Source: a virus (taxonomy: Duplodnaviria > Heunggongvirae > Uroviricota > Caudoviricetes). From it: a stretch of DNA of 10,075 nucleotides. Positions within the stretch are counted from its first letter, which is position 1. Each line of letters starts with the position of its first letter. The position numbers were made by a program, and so were the translations under genes. The notes below the pieces were generated by a model. The model made no database searches, was not told where the DNA came from, and worked only from the letters and a program-made list of their open reading frames with translations. This document shows, in pieces, positions 2,402 through 10,075 of the stretch. The DNA is taken from the IMG/VR virus record IMGVR_UViG_2654587588_000010, positions 1 through 10,075 of that record, one strand, 5' to 3'.

Positions 2402-2704
2402 GGAAAAAATTTTTTTTCGGAAGAACTGTTCACACTGTTCACCATTTGGTTTTCTCCTTTTATTTCAGCATGATAGGTGGTGAATAATGGGTGAAGGGTG
2501 AACATTCGATTCTTCACCTCCGGCATTCTGCCGGTGTGACTCATACCGGTGATTAATCCCCCGTACTGAAATCACACAGGGAGAAAAAAGTTTTTTTTTG
2601 ATTTGATTGTTCACACTGTTCACCTTTCATTTTTCTCTTTTAATTTCAGTATGATAACGGGTGAATACACGGTGAAGGGTGAACAGTGGATTGTTCACCT
2701 TCGG
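2402..2704. repeat. crr-like cis replication region: two direct repeats of about 122 bp at a 180-bp period, each carrying TGTTCAC-type iterons
   Basis: Seen: 2402-2522 and 2582-2704 align nearly base for base, each with TGTTCACACTGTTCACC, GGTGAA, GGTGAAGGGTGAAC and TTCACC motifs. Established (from memory): P4 crr is two 120-bp direct repeats with type I iterons bound by alpha, next to the 3' end of the alpha gene. Confidence 0.6.
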
Positions 2705-2717
2705 GGAATTCAGGGAT

Positions 2718-2742
2718 AAAAAAAGACCGGCAGATGCCGGTC
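2718..2742 (-). terminator. Rho-independent terminator of the leftward alpha operon
   Basis: Seen: minus-strand hairpin GACCGGCATCTGCCGGTC (plus 2725-2742) followed immediately by a 7-nt U-run (plus 2718-2724), 17 nt after the alpha stop codon at 2759-2761. Confidence 0.5.
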
Positions 2743-2758
2743 AGATGAGTCATGAGGG

Positions 2759-5092
2759 TCAGGTTGTTGCAGGGTCGTCACATTTTGGCAGCCAGTCGCC
2801 GTAGCTTTCCTCTTTCAGCGTCAGGTTGGTCTGTATCCCCTGTTTGGTATGGCGCTTCTCGTAATTCAGTCCGTATTCCTTCAGCATCACCGGCAGCCCC
2901 AGCCCGAACATTTTCAGACTGAGTACATTCCGGTAGCCGTTTGCCTCCATGTAGGCCAGATAGGCGTGATAGAGGTATTTACGGTAATTACGCGGGATGA
3001 TACTGGCGTTCCCCATATACATGCCGCTGGTCTGCGGCAGGGTTTCCAGATAGCCGATAAAATCAAACGTCGGGTCGGCATCCCGTTTGATGTTCAGCGC
3101 CTCGTCTGAGTTCTGCTGGGACTGAAGCAGTGACCGGGCGAGCATCGGGTCGCTGAACTTCTGCATCAGGTGACGCACGATGACCGCCAGCTCGCGGGTG
3201 ATTTTGTCCTTAAGCTGCGGGTCGCGCTCCTGCGGGGCTATCTGTTCCGGGAAGTGAATAATCACCCGCCGGCGTGACACGCCGCCGCTGCGGTCGGTGA
3301 AGCGCATCGGGTTATTGTTCACGGCCAGAATCACCGCCGGGATGTGCGTGGAGTACGCATCCCGGTATTTCGGGTCAACGGACACCGCATCGCCGCCGGT
3401 GATGGCCTTGAGTCCGGCACCGTCGCCGCTCCATTTTTCCTGGTCCGGCAGGCGTATCAGTGAGAAGCCAGTTAACGCGGCACGTTCACGCGGGGATTCC
3501 AGCGTCTCGATGGTGGCCGACGTGGCGTTATCCTCCCCGGCCAGCAGGGTGGCGATTTCGGCCATGATACTTTTGCCGCTGCCGCCGGGACCGGTCACCT
3601 CCAGAAAGAGCTGCCAGTCGTAGCGGTTTGCCAGCACCATAAACAGTGCGGCCAGAATCACGTCGCGTTTTTCCGCACGACCACCGGCGGCACGGTCAAG
3701 CCAGCGCCAGAACGCGGGAGCGTGGGTTTCCAGCGTTTCCCCTTCCACCGGCGGGGTGAAATCCACATCGCACAGGGTACGCATCCAGTGTGACGGACTG
3801 TGCGGGTGGAACGTGCCGTTCTGCGTGTCGGGCACGCCGTTACGAAAGCCAATCAGGCGGCGGGAGGGGGCTTCCTGCTGCGGAATAATCAGCTTCAGGG
3901 TGTCCACCACGGAGGCCACCTTCCCGGAGGAGAACGGCGCACGCAGACGCTGAAACAGCCCGGCCACATCCCGGGCAAAGTCCTGTGGCGGCAGCACCTT
4001 CCAGACACCATTTTCATAACGGGACAGAAGCTGGCCGTTGGCATCGACCGCGAGCGCCTCGCCGTAATGCTCATAGATACGCATGGCCTTTTCGCTGGTA
4101 CTCATGGCGGAAAACTCCGCTTCACTCATGGTGTCGAACGGGCTTTCAGCCGGTGGCCGGATGGCATCGTAAATGGCCTTACGGGTGGCCTCCCCGCCGT
4201 ACTGCGTGAAGGCATCATTCCAGTCACCGAAGACCGGTGGCAGGGCAACAACACCTTCACACGCATCTGCGGCTGCGGCGGCTTTTTTCTGGCCGTCACC
4301 GCTGAGGTCACGGTCAGCAGCAAGGACAATCTGACAGGCCGGATGCTTCTGCCGGGCAAGGCTGGCCAGAGAAAGGAGGTTCACGGAAGAAAGCGCCACC
4401 ATCACCGTTTCACCGGTCAGGTGATGTACGGTAAGTGCGGTCGCGTATCCCTCCGCTATCCACAGACGTTTTCCGGCCTGATTCTGTCCTTCAAGGGTGT
4501 GACAGGTGCCCCTGACCTGTCCGCCTTTCAGGGTGCGCTTACGGCCGTCAGCACTGATTAACTGAAGGTTAACCAGTTCGCCGCTGTCGTCATACAGTGG
4601 CACCACAAGGTCACCGGCGCGCCAGCTCACGCCACCGGCTCTGTGTGTGCCGGTCAGCATCCGGCATTCCCGGCCGGGAAAGCCCTTGCGGGTCAGGTAG
4701 GCGTTACCGGTTCCGGGACGGGTTTTCGCTATCAGGGTTTGTGCCAGTGCGGCGGCGTTCTTCCGGGCAGCGTCTGTTTCAGCACCGGCGGCAGCCGTCA
4801 CTGCCGGGTCAGCCGGGGGCAGGCTGCCGGTCACGGCAGCCACCTTTGCGGCCGCGTCGGACGGGGAGACACCAAACACCTTTTCAACCAGTTTCAGGCC
4901 GTCACCGGCACCACACTGATTGCAGTACCAGGTGCCGCGCCCCTCCCTGTCATCAAAACGGAAGCGGTCACTCCCGCCACAGACCGGACAGGGCTGATGA
5001 CGGTTCTTCAGCACCTGAATCCCCAGCGCCGGGAGAATACGCGGCCAGTGGCCGAGCGCATGGCTGACGGTGGCGGTTACGTTCATTTTCAT
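2759..5092 (-). CDS. alpha: P4 alpha-type primase-helicase replication protein (777 aa)
   Basis: Seen: N-terminal zinc-binding motif CPVCGGSDRF...WYCNQCG; Walker A GPGGSGKS in the central NTPase domain; RBS AAGGAGA 8 nt before ATG at 5092. Established: P4 alpha is a 777-aa primase, helicase and origin-binding protein. Lies next to the crr repeats as in P4. Confidence 0.9.
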   Translation of the reverse strand: MKMNVTATVSHALGHWPRILPALGIQVLKNRHQPCPVCGGSDRFRFDDREGRGTWYCNQCGAGDGLKLVEKVFGVSPSDAAAKVAAVTGSLPPADPAVTAAAGAETDAARKNAAALAQTLIAKTRPGTGNAYLTRKGFPGRECRMLTGTHRAGGVSWRAGDLVVPLYDDSGELVNLQLISADGRKRTLKGGQVRGTCHTLEGQNQAGKRLWIAEGYATALTVHHLTGETVMVALSSVNLLSLASLARQKHPACQIVLAADRDLSGDGQKKAAAAADACEGVVALPPVFGDWNDAFTQYGGEATRKAIYDAIRPPAESPFDTMSEAEFSAMSTSEKAMRIYEHYGEALAVDANGQLLSRYENGVWKVLPPQDFARDVAGLFQRLRAPFSSGKVASVVDTLKLIIPQQEAPSRRLIGFRNGVPDTQNGTFHPHSPSHWMRTLCDVDFTPPVEGETLETHAPAFWRWLDRAAGGRAEKRDVILAALFMVLANRYDWQLFLEVTGPGGSGKSIMAEIATLLAGEDNATSATIETLESPRERAALTGFSLIRLPDQEKWSGDGAGLKAITGGDAVSVDPKYRDAYSTHIPAVILAVNNNPMRFTDRSGGVSRRRVIIHFPEQIAPQERDPQLKDKITRELAVIVRHLMQKFSDPMLARSLLQSQQNSDEALNIKRDADPTFDFIGYLETLPQTSGMYMGNASIIPRNYRKYLYHAYLAYMEANGYRNVLSLKMFGLGLPVMLKEYGLNYEKRHTKQGIQTNLTLKEESYGDWLPKCDDPATT

Positions 5093-5106
5093 GGTGTTGT
5101 TCTCCT

Positions 5107-5427
5107 TCAGTGCAGTACCGGCGCTTTTATGTGACGGGCACAGAGTTCATCCATCACAACCAGCCCGAGAAAGGACAGCGACGGCGCGGCCTTCAGGGGG
5201 CCGGATTCCATTAAATCTTCCAGCAGGGCACAGGCTATCTGACGCCCTTTTTCCTCACCGTGCTGGCGCAGATAAAAGCCCTCCAGCTCAGCGGCGATGG
5301 CCGCCTCCAGTGATTCAAGGGTGAGATGCGGGTAGCGGTGCTGACGTTCGCACACGGTCAGCCAGGCACAGGCGACAGCGCGACGGTAAAGGGCAGCGCG
5401 TAAGACGGGCGGTAAGGGTGTTTTCAT
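5107..5427 (-). CDS. Small protein of the P4 left operon (106 aa), function unknown
   Basis: Seen: RBS GGGAGG 7 nt before ATG at 5427; stop TGA at 5107-5109 sits 14 nt before the alpha start, inside the alpha RBS region. Immediately upstream of alpha and co-oriented. Confidence 0.55.
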
Positions 5428-5562
5428 TTGTTTTCCTCCCTGTGACAGATGACTGCATTCCGTGCCGGTTGCATTAACTGATAAGGCATATCTGCGTCTC
5501 CTGAAGACGTGCGTATCCCTGCGCGAATACGCACATTTAATTTTTCGGGTGTCGTTTTTTAA

Positions 5563-6018
5563 TTACAGATAATTGCGGTAACTGTTATCCGGGGTGATTT
5601 CCGGGTCAGGCTCCGTGCGGGGAATTTCCCGCCATTCCCGCGCCACCGGTGCCGCCCGGCTGACCGGAACAGGGTCCTGCGGGTAAATATCCAGATATTT
5701 CTCCCGCCATTTCTGTAATTCCGGGTCTCCGGCCATTTCTTTCAGTACCGCATGCCGGTTTACGGGGCTGCGTCTGAACAGGTCAGGACGGTCACAGGTA
5801 AATTTCCGCAGAAAACGCCCCAGCGGGATATCTGTGGTGCGCCCGTCAGCGAGGATACGCACAAGGATACTGAATTTACGGCGGTACGGGTTCCAGACAA
5901 TGTCCGGGCAGCGGTACGGCATTTCCCACGGAATACCGTCTTCCAGAATGCCAACCACGGCCACATCGGGAAAACCGGCAGAACGGTAAATCTCACCGGG
6001 CTGGGGAAAATCAAACAT
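5563..6018 (-). CDS. P4 orf151-like protein (151 aa), function unknown
   Basis: Seen: RBS GGGGAGA before ATG at 6018; the start overlaps the stop of the upstream ORF (ATGTTTGA), indicating translational coupling. Established (from memory): P4 has a 151-codon ORF between epsilon and alpha. Confidence 0.6.
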   Translation of the reverse strand: MFDFPQPGEIYRSAGFPDVAVVGILEDGIPWEMPYRCPDIVWNPYRRKFSILVRILADGRTTDIPLGRFLRKFTCDRPDLFRRSPVNRHAVLKEMAGDPELQKWREKYLDIYPQDPVPVSRAAPVAREWREIPRTEPDPEITPDNSYRNYL

Positions 6019-6298
6019 GCGTCTTGTCTCCCCGGTCTTTCTGCTGGGCGAGAAAATCGCGGCACAGGCCTTTGGCTTTCAGCTCATTCAGCACAAAATC
6101 AATATCTTCATTCAGGTAGCTGAAAATATGCGGAATGTAGAGCTGATGCAGGCCGGAGAGTTCACGGTGAATCAAATCACCCCCAACAAACTGGGATACG
6201 GCGCTGGCGCGGTTGAGCTTATGGTAAGCCTCAATGCTGAGGTGTTCACGGGCGTCATGACGCGCTGAGACGGTCTGAGGGGCTTTTTTATTACGCAC
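6011..6298 (-). CDS. epsilon: Probable P4 epsilon-type derepression protein (95 aa)
   Basis: Assigned from position (directly upstream of orf151 in the left operon) and size only; no motif recognised. GTG start at 6298 overlaps the stop of the eta-like ORF (GTGCGTAA). Confidence 0.5.
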
Positions 6299-6488
6299 GG
6301 GACACCTCCATCACCGGCAGACGGGCAGCAAGGGAGAGCACATAGTCACGGACAAGGGAACGGCGGGCACTGCGTTCATCACCGGCGACGGTGCGAAGCA
6401 TGCAGATACGGGGGTGACGGTCTGCGCGACGGACAGCCGCAAACACAAAGACAAATTCAGGGTGTGAGGGGGTAAGGGTTGTAGCCAT
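6291..6488 (-). CDS. Small ORF (65 aa) at the position of P4 eta
   Basis: Seen: internal ATG at 6488 of the long 6291-6890 ORF, preceded by AGGAGG (plus 6497-6502) that overlaps the seqC-like element; stop overlaps the epsilon start. Upstream part of the long ORF rejected. Confidence 0.4.
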
Positions 6489-6499
6489 GATGGCAGCCT

Positions 6500-6540
6500 C
6501 CTTGAAGTAACAGTTACAGCTACCACTGGAGTTCCTACGC
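6500..6540 (-). promoter_or_regulatory. seqC-like antisense target: two 8-nt blocks complementary to seqB
   Basis: Seen: plus-strand CCTTGAAG (6500-6507) and GTTCCTAC (6531-6538) are reverse complements of CTTCAAGG and GTAGGAA in 6565-6586. Established: in P4, CI RNA pairs with seqA and seqC on nascent leftward transcripts to terminate transcription and block translation. Confidence 0.5.
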
Positions 6541-6545
6541 TCATG

Positions 6546-6625
6546 GGTGGTAGCCCGGACGGGGGTAGGAATACCGGCCTTCAAGGAAACCGGCCAGCCC
6601 GAAGGCTGCCCCGCCCGGACCACCA
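6546..6625 (-). ncRNA. cI: CI-type immunity RNA candidate carrying seqB; ends approximate
   Basis: Seen: GC-rich segment with long-range pairing (GGTGGT 6546-6551 with ACCACC 6619-6624; GGGCGGGG with CCCCGUCC allowing one G-U) enclosing a CAGCC-UUCG-GGCUG tetraloop hairpin and the seqB blocks at 6565-6586. Boundaries not determinable from sequence alone. Confidence 0.45.
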
Positions 6626-6721
6626 TTATCTGACAGAGGCTACGGTTTAAAAACCACAGCCAGAAAAACAGGTGTGCCGAAGCAACGACGTAAAAAAAGA
6701 CGCATGGCGCGTCATATGTCG

Positions 6722-6745
6722 CCTTGAAGTAACTCGGGTTCCTAC
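6722..6745 (-). promoter_or_regulatory. seqA-like antisense target in the early leader
   Basis: Seen: CCTTGAAG (6722-6729) and GTTCCTAC (6738-6745), the same two blocks as seqC, complementary to seqB. Confidence 0.5.
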
Positions 6746-6776
6746 GCCCGGCTGCCGATTTTGCGGCAGCGGAAAA

Positions 6777-6806
6777 ACTATATCCGCAAATGCCGGAAAA
6801 AGGCAA
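6777..6806 (-). promoter_or_regulatory. Candidate early leftward promoter (PLE-like)
   Basis: Seen on minus strand: -35 TTGCCT (plus 6801-6806), 18-nt spacer, -10 TATAGT (plus 6777-6782); predicted start near 6770, about 25 nt upstream of seqA and about 395 bp downstream of the predicted PLL start. Established (from memory): P4 PLE lies about 400 bp downstream of PLL. Confidence 0.4.
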
Positions 6807-6841
6807 GCCAGAAAAAGGGAGTTTTTGCAGAACAGGCATCA

Positions 6842-7108
6842 TCATGCGTCGTACCCCCGTTTGCGTCCGGCAATGCGCCCGGCCATCCATGCGGTGACTT
6901 CAGAGTGCAGCCAGGCCACATTTTTACCGCCAAGACTCACCTGCGGCGGAAATTCCCCCTTACGGATGAGTTCGTAGATGGTCGAGCGTGACAGGCCGCA
7001 CAGGTGCATCACTTCCGGCAGACGTAAAAAACGCTCCTGCGTGATGTCCGGCAGCGGCATCAGTGGCGTCACAGGGGCGGGAGACGGGGAAGAAAAAACA
7101 GCTTGCAT
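6842..7108 (-). CDS. vis: Vis / AlpA-family DNA-binding regulator (88 aa)
   Basis: Seen: helix-turn-helix segment [30 protein letters not shown] typical of the AlpA family; RBS GAGG before ATG at 7108; sits between the late-promoter region and the immunity module as P4 vis (orf88) does. Confidence 0.85.
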
Positions 7109-7210
7109 CGGGCTACCTCGTTAATGTCCATACAGCACCGGATAAGTCCGTCCGGCTTCGGGTAGCGCTTTATTTTGTGAATATTTTCAGCAGACGCAAC
7201 AGGGGGGATT

Positions 7211-7228
7211 TGTTCCGGCAGTCTTACA
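7211..7228 (-). promoter_or_regulatory. Ogr/Delta-type activator site (TGT-N12-ACA) of a leftward late promoter (PLL-like)
   Basis: Seen: TGTTCCGGCAGTCTTACA. Established: P2/P4 late promoters carry TGT-N12-ACA centred near -55; that places the start near 7165, 57 nt upstream of vis. Confidence 0.4.
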
Positions 7229-7386
7229 ATGGCTGTGTATTTTTTGTACATCAGCGCCAGATAGCTTTAAAACGCTCTGGAAGGAGCTGGAAAAAATTAT
7301 AGTGAAATACAAATTGTTTTTTCTTATTTATTTCAGTGAATTAATAAAAATAAAAAGTAATAAACAGCACAAAAAGCCCATCAACG

Positions 7387-7491
7387 GGTGAACAGTGGTG
7401 AACAGACGGTGAACAGTCATTACTGCGATTGTTCACCCTTTAAATTACTGTATTACTTATCTTTTTTCTTATGGTGAACAGAGGTGAACAG
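7387..7491. repeat. Origin-of-replication iteron cluster (six GGTGAACAG / TGTTCACC copies) in an AT-rich intergenic region
   Basis: Seen: GGTGAACAG at 7387-7395, 7397-7405, 7408-7416, 7473-7481 and 7483-7491, plus inverted TGTTCACC at 7430-7437, flanked by AT-rich DNA (7290-7380, 7440-7510). Same motif as in the crr repeats. Established (from memory): P4 ori consists of alpha-bound type I iterons. Confidence 0.6.
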
Positions 7492-7569
7492 TAAAATATA
7501 AAAAAACAAACAGTAAGCCGGTTTTTCCTGCGACCTTTTCCTGGCTTGCCGGTCTGAGGATGAGTCTCC

Positions 7570-7636
7570 TGTGTCAGGGCTGGCACATCTGCAATGCGTC
7601 GTGTTGTTGTCCGGTGTACGTCACAATTTTCTTAAC
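7570..7636 (+). promoter_or_regulatory. Psid-like late promoter with Ogr/Delta-type activator site
   Basis: Seen: TGT-N12-ACA at 7570-7587 (TGTGTCAGGGCTGGCACA); weak -10-like CACAAT near 7622-7627; RBS GAGGAG at 7647-7652; sid ATG at 7660. Confidence 0.45.
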
Positions 7637-7659
7637 CTGAAGTGACGAGGAGCCGGAAA

Positions 7660-8394
7660 ATGTCTGACAACACCATCCCTGAATATCTGCAACCCGCGCT
7701 GGCACAACTGGAAAAGGCCAGAGCCGCCCACCTTGAGAACGCCCGCCTGATGGATGAGACCGTCACGGCCATTGAACGGGCAGAGCAGGAAAAAAATGCG
7801 CTGGCGCAGGCCGACGGAAACGACGCTGACGACTGGCGCACGGCCTTTCGTGCAGCCGGTGGTGTCCTGAGCGACGAGCTGAAACAGCGCCACATTGAGC
7901 GCGTGGCACGCCGGGAGCTGGTACAGGAATATGACAATCTGGCCGTGGTGCTGAATTTCGAACGTGAACGCCTGAAAGGGGCGTGTGACAGCACGGCCAC
8001 CGCCTACCGGAAGGCACATCATCACCTGCTGAGTCTGTATGCAGAGCATGAGCTGGAACACGCCCTGAATGAAACCTGTGAGGCGCTTGTCCGGGCAATG
8101 CATCTGAGCATTCTGGTACAGGAAAATCCGCTCGCCAACACCACCGGGCATCAGGGCTACGTCGCACCCGATAAAGCTGTCATGCAGCAGGTGAAATCAT
8201 CGCTGGAACAGAAAATAAAACAGATGCAAATCAGCCTCACCGGCGAGCCGGTTCTCCGGCTGACCGGACTGTCAGCGGCAACACTCCCGCACATGGATTA
8301 TGAGGTGGCAGGCACACCGGCACAGCGCAAGGTGTGGCAGGACAAAATAGACCAGCAGGGAGCAGTGCTTAAGGCCAGAGGACTGCTGTCATGA
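7660..8394 (+). CDS. sid: Sid capsid size-determination (external scaffold) protein, 244 aa
   Basis: Seen: ATG at 7660 with RBS GAGGAG 7 nt upstream is preferred over the GTG at 7642 in the ORF track; stop overlaps the delta start (ATGA). Established: P4 late operon is sid-delta-psu and Sid is 244 aa (from memory). Confidence 0.85.
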   Translation: MSDNTIPEYLQPALAQLEKARAAHLENARLMDETVTAIERAEQEKNALAQADGNDADDWRTAFRAAGGVLSDELKQRHIERVARRELVQEYDNLAVVLNFERERLKGACDSTATAYRKAHHHLLSLYAEHELEHALNETCEALVRAMHLSILVQENPLANTTGHQGYVAPDKAVMQQVKSSLEQKIKQMQISLTGEPVLRLTGLSAATLPHMDYEVAGTPAQRKVWQDKIDQQGAVLKARGLLS

Positions 8395-8891
8395 TTTACT
8401 GCCCGTCGTGTGGACATGTTGCTCACACCCGCCGCGCACATTTCATGGACGATGGCACCAAGATAATGATTGCACAGTGCCGGAATATTTATTGCTCTGC
8501 GACATTTGAAGCGAGTGAAAGCTTTTTCTCTGACAGTAAAGATTCAGGAATGGAATACATTTCAGGCAAACAGAGATACCGCGATTCACTGACGTCAGCC
8601 TCCGGTAGCATGAAACGCCCGAAAAGAATGCTTGTTACCGGATATTGTTGTCGGAGATGTAAAGGCCTTGCACTGTCAAGAACATCGCGGCGTCTGTCTC
8701 AGGAAGTCACCGAGCGTTTTTATGTGTGCACGGATCCGGGCTGTGGTCTGGTGTTTAAAACGCTTCAGACCATCAACCGCTTCATTGTCCGCCCGGTCAC
8801 GCCGGACGAACTGGCAGAAAGCCTGCATGAAAAACAGGAACTGCCGCCAGTACGCTTAAAAACACAATCATATTCGCTGCGTCTGGAATGA
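8391..8891 (+). CDS. delta: Delta late-gene transcriptional activator: two tandem Ogr-like zinc-finger modules (166 aa)
   Basis: Seen: N-terminal module MIYCPSCGHVAHTRRAHF...CRNIYCSATF and a second C-x2-C...C-x4-C module CCRRCKGLA...CTDPGCGLVF. Established: P4 Delta is 166 aa and resembles a covalent dimer of P2 Ogr. Confidence 0.9.
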   Translation: MIYCPSCGHVAHTRRAHFMDDGTKIMIAQCRNIYCSATFEASESFFSDSKDSGMEYISGKQRYRDSLTSASGSMKRPKRMLVTGYCCRRCKGLALSRTSRRLSQEVTERFYVCTDPGCGLVFKTLQTINRFIVRPVTPDELAESLHEKQELPPVRLKTQSYSLRLE

Positions 8892-8964
8892 GGGCTGCCG
8901 GTTAACACCGGCCGTCGCCGCACACCGTATTTTTATTCTTCAGCATGATGAGAAAGATATAACG

Positions 8965-9207
8965 ATGGAAAGCACAGCCTTACAGCAGGCCTTTGACACC
9001 TGTCAGAATAACAAAGCAGCATGGCTGCAACGCAAAAATGAGCTGGCTGCGGCCGAACAGGAATATCTGCGGCTTCTGTCAGGAGAAGGCAGAAACGTCA
9101 GTCGCCTGGACGAATTACGCAATATTATCGAAGTCAGAAAATGGCAGGTGAATCAGGCTGAACCGCCCCGGGAATCCTGGAGACTAAACTCCCTGAGAAA
9201 GAGGTAA
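8965..9207 (+). pseudogene. psu: psu (polarity suppression / capsid decoration) truncated by IS insertion
   Basis: Seen: ORF starts MESTALQQAFDTCQNNKAAW... and switches at about codon 65 (near 9159) into IS-derived sequence, ending after 15 more codons at TAA 9205-9207. Established (from memory): P4 Psu is about 190 aa with this N-terminus. Confidence 0.7.
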
Positions 9208-9212
9208 ACAGG

Positions 9213-9539
9213 ATGACTAAAAATACACGTTTTTCCCCCGAGGTCCGTCAACGGGCAGTTCGTATGGTTCTGGAAAGTCAGGATGAATATGACTCACAGT
9301 GGGCGGCAATTTGTTCCATTGCCCCAAAGATTGGCTGTACGCCGGAGACTCTGCGTGTCTGGGTTCGCCAGCATGAGCGGGATACCGGGAGCGGTGATGG
9401 CGGACTCACCACCGCTGAACGTCAGCGTCTGAAAGAGCTGGAACGTGAAAATCGTGAACTGCGCCGCAGTAACGATATCCTTCGCCAGGCTTCCGCTTAT
9501 TTTGCGAAGGCGGAGTTCGACCGCCTCTGGAAAAAATAA
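9213..9539 (+). CDS. IS3-family transposase OrfA (108 aa, helix-turn-helix plus leucine zipper)
   Basis: Seen: [22 protein letters not shown]...[28 protein letters not shown], matching IS629-group OrfA as recalled; stop TAA at 9537-9539 overlaps the orfB ATG. Confidence 0.9.
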
Positions 9540-10075
9540 TGCCACTGCTGGATAAGCTGCGTGAGCAGTACGGGGTCGGACCGCTATGCAGCGAACTGCA
9601 TATTGCCCCGTCAACGTATTACCACTGTCAGCAACAGCGACATCATCCTGATAAACGCAGTGCCCGTGCGCAGCGCGATGACTGGCTGAAGAAAGAGATA
9701 CAGCGCGTATACGATGAAAATCATCAGGTATACGGTGTGCGTAAAGTCTGGCGCCAGTTGTTACGCGAAGGTATCAGGGTGGCCAGATGTACAGTGGCGC
9801 GCCTCATGGCGGTTATGGGACTTGCCGGTGTTCTCCGGGGTAAAAAGGTCCGTACGACCATCAGCCGGAAAGCCGTTTCCGCATGCGACCGCGTAAACCG
9901 TCAGTTCGTGGCAGAACGTCCAGACCAGTTGTGGGTGGCTGATTTTACCTGGGTAAGCACATGGCAGGGCTTCGTTTATGTGGCGTTCATCATTGATGTG
10001 TTCGCCGGATACATCGTGGGATGGCAGGTCTCATCATCCATGGAAACAACATTCGTGCTGGATGCACTGGAGCAG
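9539..10075 (+). CDS. IS3-family transposase OrfB (DDE integrase domain), 3'-partial at the window edge
   Basis: Seen: frame open from ATG 9539 to the window end (179 codons): [29 protein letters not shown]...QLWVADFTWVSTWQGFVYVAFIIDVFAGYIVGW. Missing from the ORF track because no stop codon is reached. Confidence 0.85.
   Translation, partial: MPLLDKLREQYGVGPLCSELHIAPSTYYHCQQQRHHPDKRSARAQRDDWLKKEIQRVYDENHQVYGVRKVWRQLLREGIRVARCTVARLMAVMGLAGVLRGKKVRTTISRKAVSACDRVNRQFVAERPDQLWVADFTWVSTWQGFVYVAFIIDVFAGYIVGWQVSSSMETTFVLDALEQ

Follow-up and report, generated by a model that had tools for sequence, protein, structure and literature searches.

A probable P4-type CI antisense-RNA immunity region with recognition blocks unlike those of P4 in a defective satellite prophage of Escherichia coli

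The stretch of DNA that we analyzed (10,075 nt, referred to below as the window) contains a P4-like satellite prophage of E. coli, which is defective. Positions 2404-9158 of the window are colinear with positions 4291-11081 of P4, at an identity of ~97%. The features and genes of the minus strand are listed in Table 1; sid, delta and the start of psu are located on the opposite (plus) strand, and the crr repeats are also present in the P4-homologous part. The homology to P4 begins abruptly at position 2404, at the crr repeats. To the left of this position, two adjacent ORFs of the AIDA/YpjA-EhaD autotransporter type (270-1730 and 1759-2085) appear to be a split or truncated gene. At the other side, the homology stops at position 9158, where psu is cut by an IS3-family element that is IS1203-like in E. 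coli annotations. An 80-codon psu fragment is located at 8965-9207, and the insertion element (9158-10075, plus strand) contains an HTH_Tnp_1 ORF (9213-9539) and an ALIL frameshift pseudoknot (9494-9610, 119 bits). No integrase gene, tRNA or att core or site was found within the 10,075-nt window, including the left end of the P4 homology.

Table 1. Features of the immunity region and genes of the P4-homologous part, in the leftward direction
Feature	Positions	Strand	Remarks
vis (AlpA-family excisionase/regulator)	7108-6842	minus	Pfam Phage_AlpA, 74 bits; homologue of P4 ORF88; upstream of the PLE-like promoter
eta, 199-codon ORF in the kil frame	6890-6291	minus	spans promoter, seqA, t1, CI and seqC
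PLE-type promoter-like site	6806-6777	minus	-35 TTGCCT 6806-6801, 18-nt spacer, -10 TATAGT 6782-6777
Leader RNA, isrK-like, ~78 nt	6770-6693	minus	carries seqA; isrK and c4-a1b1 matches, fold
a1 (seqA), GTAGGAA	6745-6739	minus	in the loop of the GGG/CCC hairpin (hairpin 2) of the leader
b1 (seqA), CTTCAAGG	6729-6722	minus	
Intrinsic terminator	6713-6692	minus	stem-loop GACGCGCCATGCGTC 6713-6699 and T7 6698-6692; terminator scan
CI (C4-family) antisense RNA	6630-6543	minus	88 nt; Rfam RF01695, fold
b' (seqB), CCTTGAAG	6586-6579	minus	9 nt against seqC: TCCTTGAAG, 6587-6579
a' (seqB), TTCCTAC	6571-6565	minus	
Alternative helix	6554-6519	minus	CI 3' arm GCUACCAC 6554-6547 with GUGGUAGC 6526-6519; inverted repeat I4
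a2 (seqC), GTAGGAA	6538-6532	minus	
b2 (seqC), CTTCAAGGA	6507-6499	minus	core CTTCAAGG 6507-6500 plus A; overlaps the kil Shine-Dalgarno
kil, 65-aa Icd-like protein	6488-6291	minus	NCBIfam NF033153 phage_ICD_like, 76 bits; first gene to be translated downstream of the leader
epsilon (helper derepression protein)	6298-6011	minus	Pfam Derepression, 170 bits; first regulated gene after kil
orf151	6018-5563	minus	after epsilon; colinear with P4
orf106	5427-5107	minus	colinear with P4
alpha primase-helicase	5092-2759	minus	colinear with P4

A preliminary description of the region, made from the sequence alone, had noted a promoter-like -35/-10 pair just upstream of a central structured element. This pair is present, and it is located upstream of seqA, i.e., of the whole leader. 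A promoter consensus scan found one site against 1.1 expected in shuffled sequence, and the promoter call is therefore based on position and conservation and not on the scan score. The site is identical to that of P4 at the homologous position, and no change in its TTGC and TATAGT was seen among 11 aligned variants. The predicted transcription start is at ~6770, which is where the match to the isrK model begins, and we infer that the site has promoter activity. The leader matches two Rfam models, RF01394 (isrK; 73.4 bits at 6770-6693, gathering score 50) and RF03163 (c4-a1b1; 49.6 bits at 6783-6731, gathering score 46.7). Its predicted fold consists of hairpin 1 (6770-6751), hairpin 2 with a1 in the loop, b1, and the terminator t1. 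The terminator begins 8 nt after b1, between seqA and cI, and a spacer of 62 nt separates it from the CI segment. It aligns with homologous P4 sequence, from which it differs by one substitution, and the stem and the T-run are kept in the 11 variants. Its position corresponds to that reported for P4 t1 by Briani and colleagues in 2000.

The central element had been described as GC-rich and highly structured, and a folding analysis bears this out: the CI segment has a G+C content of 66% and a minimum free energy (MFE) of -53.3 kcal/mol (z = -5.0), and none of 200 shuffled sequences folded as well. Moreover, a covariance-model search placed the C4 antisense RNA model (RF01695) exactly on this element, which had been proposed to be a P4-type CI RNA. 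The match scores 86.1 bits against a gathering score of 45, covers model positions 1-87 of 87 and has an E-value of 2.3e-16. The predicted fold, which agrees with the RF01695 consensus, consists of a 17-bp closing stem (6625-6548) and two internal hairpins; the MFE structure leaves a' unpaired within an 8-nt junction and places b' in the loop of the second hairpin. Among the matches listed, the same architecture is predicted for 97 of 105 distinct homologues. Permissive Rfam searching of positions 6250-7150 gave nothing beyond C4, isrK and c4-a1b1. In Rfam, isrK and C4 denote the elements that are termed seqA and CI in the P4 literature (PMC3632133, PMC10111431).

The preliminary description was built on a three-way complementarity on the leftward transcript, in which two blocks of the central element pair with blocks both upstream and downstream of it. 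All block coordinates given there proved correct against the sequence, and the complementarity is exact: a' and b' are reverse complements, over 7-9 nt, of both a1/b1 and a2/b2. It also exceeds chance. Counting both strands, CTTCAAGG occurs four times in the window against 0.26 expected, at least four copies were found in none of 200 shuffled sequences, and three of the four copies are the b1, b' and b2 sites. GTAGGAA occurs three times (0.63 expected), and all three copies are the a1, a' and a2 sites. The same direct and inverted block pairs were recovered by an independent repeat finder (D2, D3, I1, I2, I5 and I9). The downstream target was said to lie over the ribosome-binding site (RBS) of the next ORF, and b2 indeed overlaps the kil Shine-Dalgarno AAGGAGG (6503-6497), which is located 8 nt upstream of the kil start codon (ATG at 6488). 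In an element with an identical cassette, this 198-nt kil gene is likewise annotated by PGAP.

We then analyzed whether the complementarity is kept in related elements, the loss of which had been named as an observation that would speak against the proposal. It is kept, through compensatory changes in the 85-119 listed loci analyzed. Among 119 non-identical listed loci, an exact complement of at least 7 nt to the locus's own a' was found upstream in all 119 and downstream in 117; for b' these numbers are 107 and 111, respectively. As a control, blocks exchanged between loci gave complements averaging 4.6-5.0 nt. In a position-based test, the targets were placed by landmarks that are independent of seqB (GCAAAATC and GGAG...ATG) in 85 listed loci representing ~100 species. 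Watson-Crick pairing was observed at 100% for a1-a', 96.9% for b1-b', 100% for a2-a' and 96.0% for b2-b', against 13-39% in registers slid by 1-3 positions. Up to four pair types occur per position, and for a1-a' there are two to four types at six of the seven positions. These block changes alter the amino acids of eta, whose seqB stretch differs here from the PVSCEAGILTP of P4. Since the eta sequence is changed and the complementarity is kept, it is base pairing that is conserved.

The element order and the spacing are those of P4 (PLE - seqA - t1 - cI RNA - seqC - kil/eta - epsilon - alpha). The backbones share ~97-99% identity, the promoter hexamers do not differ, the terminators are nearly identical, and P4 has the same CI fold and the same kil, eta, epsilon and alpha genes. 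When P4 itself was searched with the Rfam models, C4 and isrK matches were obtained at the homologous positions. The two elements differ, however, in the cassette at 6771-6497, which is 63% identical to that of P4, whereas its flanks are 98.6% identical. The diverged cassette runs from the predicted transcription start to the kil RBS, and in a comparison with P4 by 250-nt windows, the windows of the cassette are by far the most diverged (86% and 66%). Within it, the spacer between t1 and CI is 45 nt shorter than in P4 and 32% identical, and CI is 77% identical.

This divergence includes the recognition blocks. P4 has GTGAGAA/TTCACAGG in seqA and seqC and TTCTCAC/CCTGTGAA in CI, whereas the window has GTAGGAA/CTTCAAGG with TTCCTAC/CCTTGAAG; seqA, seqB and seqC are thus changed coordinately with respect to P4. 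The predicted duplexes between cognate blocks sum to -61.4 and -58.6 kcal/mol and those between blocks of the window and P4 to -38.2 and -35.4 kcal/mol, an advantage of ~20-25 kcal/mol in sum for the cognate pairs, with absolute values that are inflated by the G+C-rich flanks. Because its blocks are unlike those of P4 at all three sites, the element is predicted to be heteroimmune to P4. A similar case is the P4-like retronphage phiR73, which was reportedly found to be heteroimmune to P4 by Sabbattini and colleagues in 1996 and whose integration site is tRNA-Sec. phiR73 has a P4-type CI system with a specificity that is shifted from that of P4 by matched changes in seqA, seqB and seqC, as in the window. 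The tRNA-Sec site is also that of an element with an immunity core identical to that of the window, but the window lacks a retron. The phiR73 sequence was not found in the phage collections searched.

It is very likely that the region is the immunity region of a P4-like satellite prophage and that it specifies a P4-type CI antisense-RNA system. The RNA family, the fold, the complementarity with its covariation, the terminator, the overlap with the RBS and the P4 gene context are features of the DNA itself, and the C4 and isrK models, the colinearity with P4 and the covariation uphold the preliminary assignment to the architecture of P4 CI RNA immunity. Processing of the RNA, termination and immunity itself are attributed to the region by analogy with the P4 literature. 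In P4, the CI RNA arises by processing of the primary transcript, and its pairing with seqA and seqC leads to premature termination (PMC4825925); CI is a substrate of RNase P (PMC5499578). The same literature supports, by analogy, the proposal that the module works by premature termination and not through a repressor protein, since a terminator after seqA and a seqC over the kil RBS form the published layout of CI-dependent termination (PMC4825925).

By this model, a constitutive PLE-type promoter at 6806-6777 would transcribe leftward through seqA, a weak t1, the CI gene, seqC, kil, epsilon, orf151 and alpha. CI would be excised from the same leader, as in P4, where this involves RNase P and 3' trimming. 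The exposed b' (in the loop) and a' (in the junction) would then pair in trans with a1/b1 and a2/b2 of new transcripts. Pairing with seqA would increase termination at t1, and pairing with seqC would cover the kil RBS, so that kil would remain untranslated and transcription would end before the replication and helper-derepression genes. The prophage would thereby stay silent, and incoming satellites with the same blocks would be shut off. Termination at P4 t1 is reportedly enhanced by CI, according to work of Briani and colleagues in 2000. P4 also has t4 and the Rho-dependent site timm after cI, and translation of kil prevents termination at timm.

The region is also open as a reading frame. 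The 65-codon kil ORF is the end of the 199-codon eta frame, which starts at 6890; the names kil and eta are said to come from Forti and colleagues in 1999. Among the matches listed, the kil frame extends upstream of the ATG without a stop codon for at least 285 nt in ~97 of 112 loci, and the other two frames have median open lengths of 24 and 129 nt in the 112 listed loci. The conservation of the eta frame indicates that coding constraints act on this stretch in addition to those on the RNA. In P4, eta is translated from transcripts of the upstream PLL promoter, which are thereby insensitive to immunity, and this fits a kil frame that is conserved open through seqC, CI, t1 and seqA.

The conserved frame raises the question of whether a protein repressor encoded by the overlapping ORF is the immunity factor, with the repeats acting as operator-like DNA sites. 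Old P4 records do annotate a 'cI gene product, 137 aa' or a 'transcriptional repressor' (Ash family), and the 199-codon ORF matches Pfam Phage_ASH with 118 bits. Nevertheless, the changes with respect to P4 are non-synonymous in this frame, yet the base complementarity is exact, and 96-100% Watson-Crick pairing in 85 listed loci, with up to four pair types, is the signature of RNA pairing. The covariance-model match is strong, the open frame has another explanation, namely that eta is translated from transcripts of the upstream promoter, and the P4 literature describes the immunity factor as an RNA (PMC3632133, PMC4825925, PMC10111431). We regard a repressor protein as hardly credible and rejected this reading, as the covariation pattern excludes it. 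A further concern is that the prophage is decaying and that the module is a non-functional relic, inherited but regulating nothing. The interruption of psu by the IS3-family element (~9158-9213), the end of the P4 homology at 2404 beside autotransporter gene fragments and the lack of an integrase gene, att site and tRNA in the window would agree with this, and because of the interrupted psu and the missing integrase and att, immunity may no longer matter for the life cycle. However, none of the six blocks is damaged, nor are the promoter hexamers, the terminator or the CI fold, and an apparently complete element at tRNA-Sec has a 331-nt core with 100% identity to that of the window. In addition, kil is predicted to encode a toxic, Icd-like protein, so that selection would probably disfavor a loss of CI control. 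These points make a relic improbable.

Unlike the preceding two, a third possibility would add to the CI mechanism and not replace it. The ~78-nt leader may act in trans like IsrK, either titrating CI through a1/b1 or remodeling the long transcript for kil translation, in which case seqA would also be an anti-immunity or activating element. The leader's match to Rfam isrK (73.4 bits) makes it a structural homologue of Salmonella IsrK. In Gifsy-1 (IsrK - orf45 - anrP), the homologous short RNA acts in trans to activate translation of a downstream ORF, and it shows complementarity to the CI-like STnc1160, a processed RNA located downstream of it (PMC4825925). Conformational switching in the long transcript is also plausible given a conserved alternative helix, which is described below. 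Against such a role, CI is reported to enhance termination at t1 in P4 (Briani and colleagues, 2000). In P4, seqA is described as a target that is needed for immunity (PMC3632133, PMC4825925), and what lies downstream in the window is the P4 operon and not orf45-anrP. The Gifsy-1 system differs from the window in its downstream genes and in its short RNA, which, besides activating translation in trans, triggers prophage induction (PMC4825925). We consider an additional IsrK-like activity of the leader rather unlikely, and the P4-type CI system remains our reading of the region.

The relationship of the module to the immI region of P1/P7 (c4, the a1b1/a2b2 targets, icd and ant) is also close. 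Both share the RNA family RF01695 and the target family RF03163, and in both the downstream target lies over the RBS of an Icd-like gene. The P1/P7 RNA is, like that of P4-type systems, processed from a transcript that is under its own control. In contrast to P1/P7, the window lacks the ant antirepressor gene and has epsilon, orf151, orf106 and alpha downstream, and P4 differs from P1/P7 by the addition of a CI-enhanced intrinsic terminator after seqA. The RNA module is therefore homologous to that of P1/P7, but the region is not an immI operon. P1-like and other phages match the stretch from CI to kil at ~70%.

The region thus contains a known system of the P4/C4 type with blocks that are not those of P4. 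The P4 system has been worked out experimentally since the 1990s, and the components found here are curated Rfam families, so that the region carries little weight as a discovery. The module is nevertheless missed by annotation, as PGAP labels only an "ash family protein" or an "Icd-like protein". Moreover, the blocks can be read from any P4-like element and used to predict which satellites exclude each other.

The 331-nt core is widespread: it matches 1793 of 5426 complete E. coli genomes (about a third), and 132 records have it at an identity of at least 99%. Nine E. coli variants have further block combinations, which are matched at all three sites. When species-representative genomes were searched for the invariant 27-nt core of CI, at least 120 stretches were obtained; most of the matches listed are from Enterobacterales, and a small number are from Aeromonas, Ralstonia, Cupriavidus and Aquitalea. 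At least 12 a-types, at least 36 b-types and at least 59 combinations were distinguished among 121 listed loci, and the combination present in the window recurs in at least three other loci of the species set. In genomes with co-resident elements, none of 25 pairs shares an allele, a comparison without statistical power, as only 0.4 such pairs were expected by chance; the a-block is shared by 4 and the b-block by 1 of the 25 pairs, in agreement with the between-genome frequencies of 17% and 7%, respectively. The block diversity, together with the sharply bounded divergence of the cassette, points to frequent exchange of cassettes or blocks and to the formation of new satellite immunity groups. 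Neither the immunity RNA nor block exchange is a topic of a large survey on P4-like satellites that we searched.

Finally, the 3' arm of CI can form an alternative helix with sequence located between a2 and b2. The resulting structure encloses a2 in its loop and cannot coexist with the outer base pairs of the closing stem of CI. In 109 distinct listed loci, the 9-bp helix is 91.8% Watson-Crick paired (97.3% including G-U pairs), against 6-39% in slid registers, and compensatory helix types exist, e.g., GCUAUCGCC/GGCGAUAGC in P4. The helix is absent from the Rfam C4 model, and our literature search found no description of it. It may be an undescribed switch that couples maturation of CI to the presentation of a2, or part of the atypical terminator t4. 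Taking these data together, one could tentatively view the a and b blocks as a two-part address code that evolves by exchange, complemented by the CI 3'-arm helix as an undescribed switch or a part of t4; this extended reading is possible, although we favor it far less than the P4-type assignment itself.

Unchanged copies of the 27-nt CI core were also observed at eight loci of Ralstonia, Cupriavidus, Aquitalea, Aeromonas and Motiliproteus, which means that the module extends beyond Enterobacterales. Six further loci with exact copies belong to assemblies whose labels read Vagococcus, Clostridiales, Bacillota or 'bacterium'; such copies are most likely explained by contamination with enterobacterial DNA or by mis-binning of contigs and not by true hosts among these taxa.

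The tRNA-Sec element mentioned above, whose 331-nt immunity core is identical to that of the window, is from E. coli 1410D004 (NZ_CP149567; locus L132, 10265-14079), and it is P4-like and apparently complete. Between psu and int, it contains a gene for a protein with a protein-kinase domain and a gene for a hypothetical protein of 495 aa; this interval is the cargo (defence) hotspot described for P4-like satellites. Outside the cassette, the only 250-nt window that is less than 90% identical to P4 is 7084-7332 (~87%), located between vis and the ori repeats, and this segment is also diverged from the corresponding one of the 1410D004 element.
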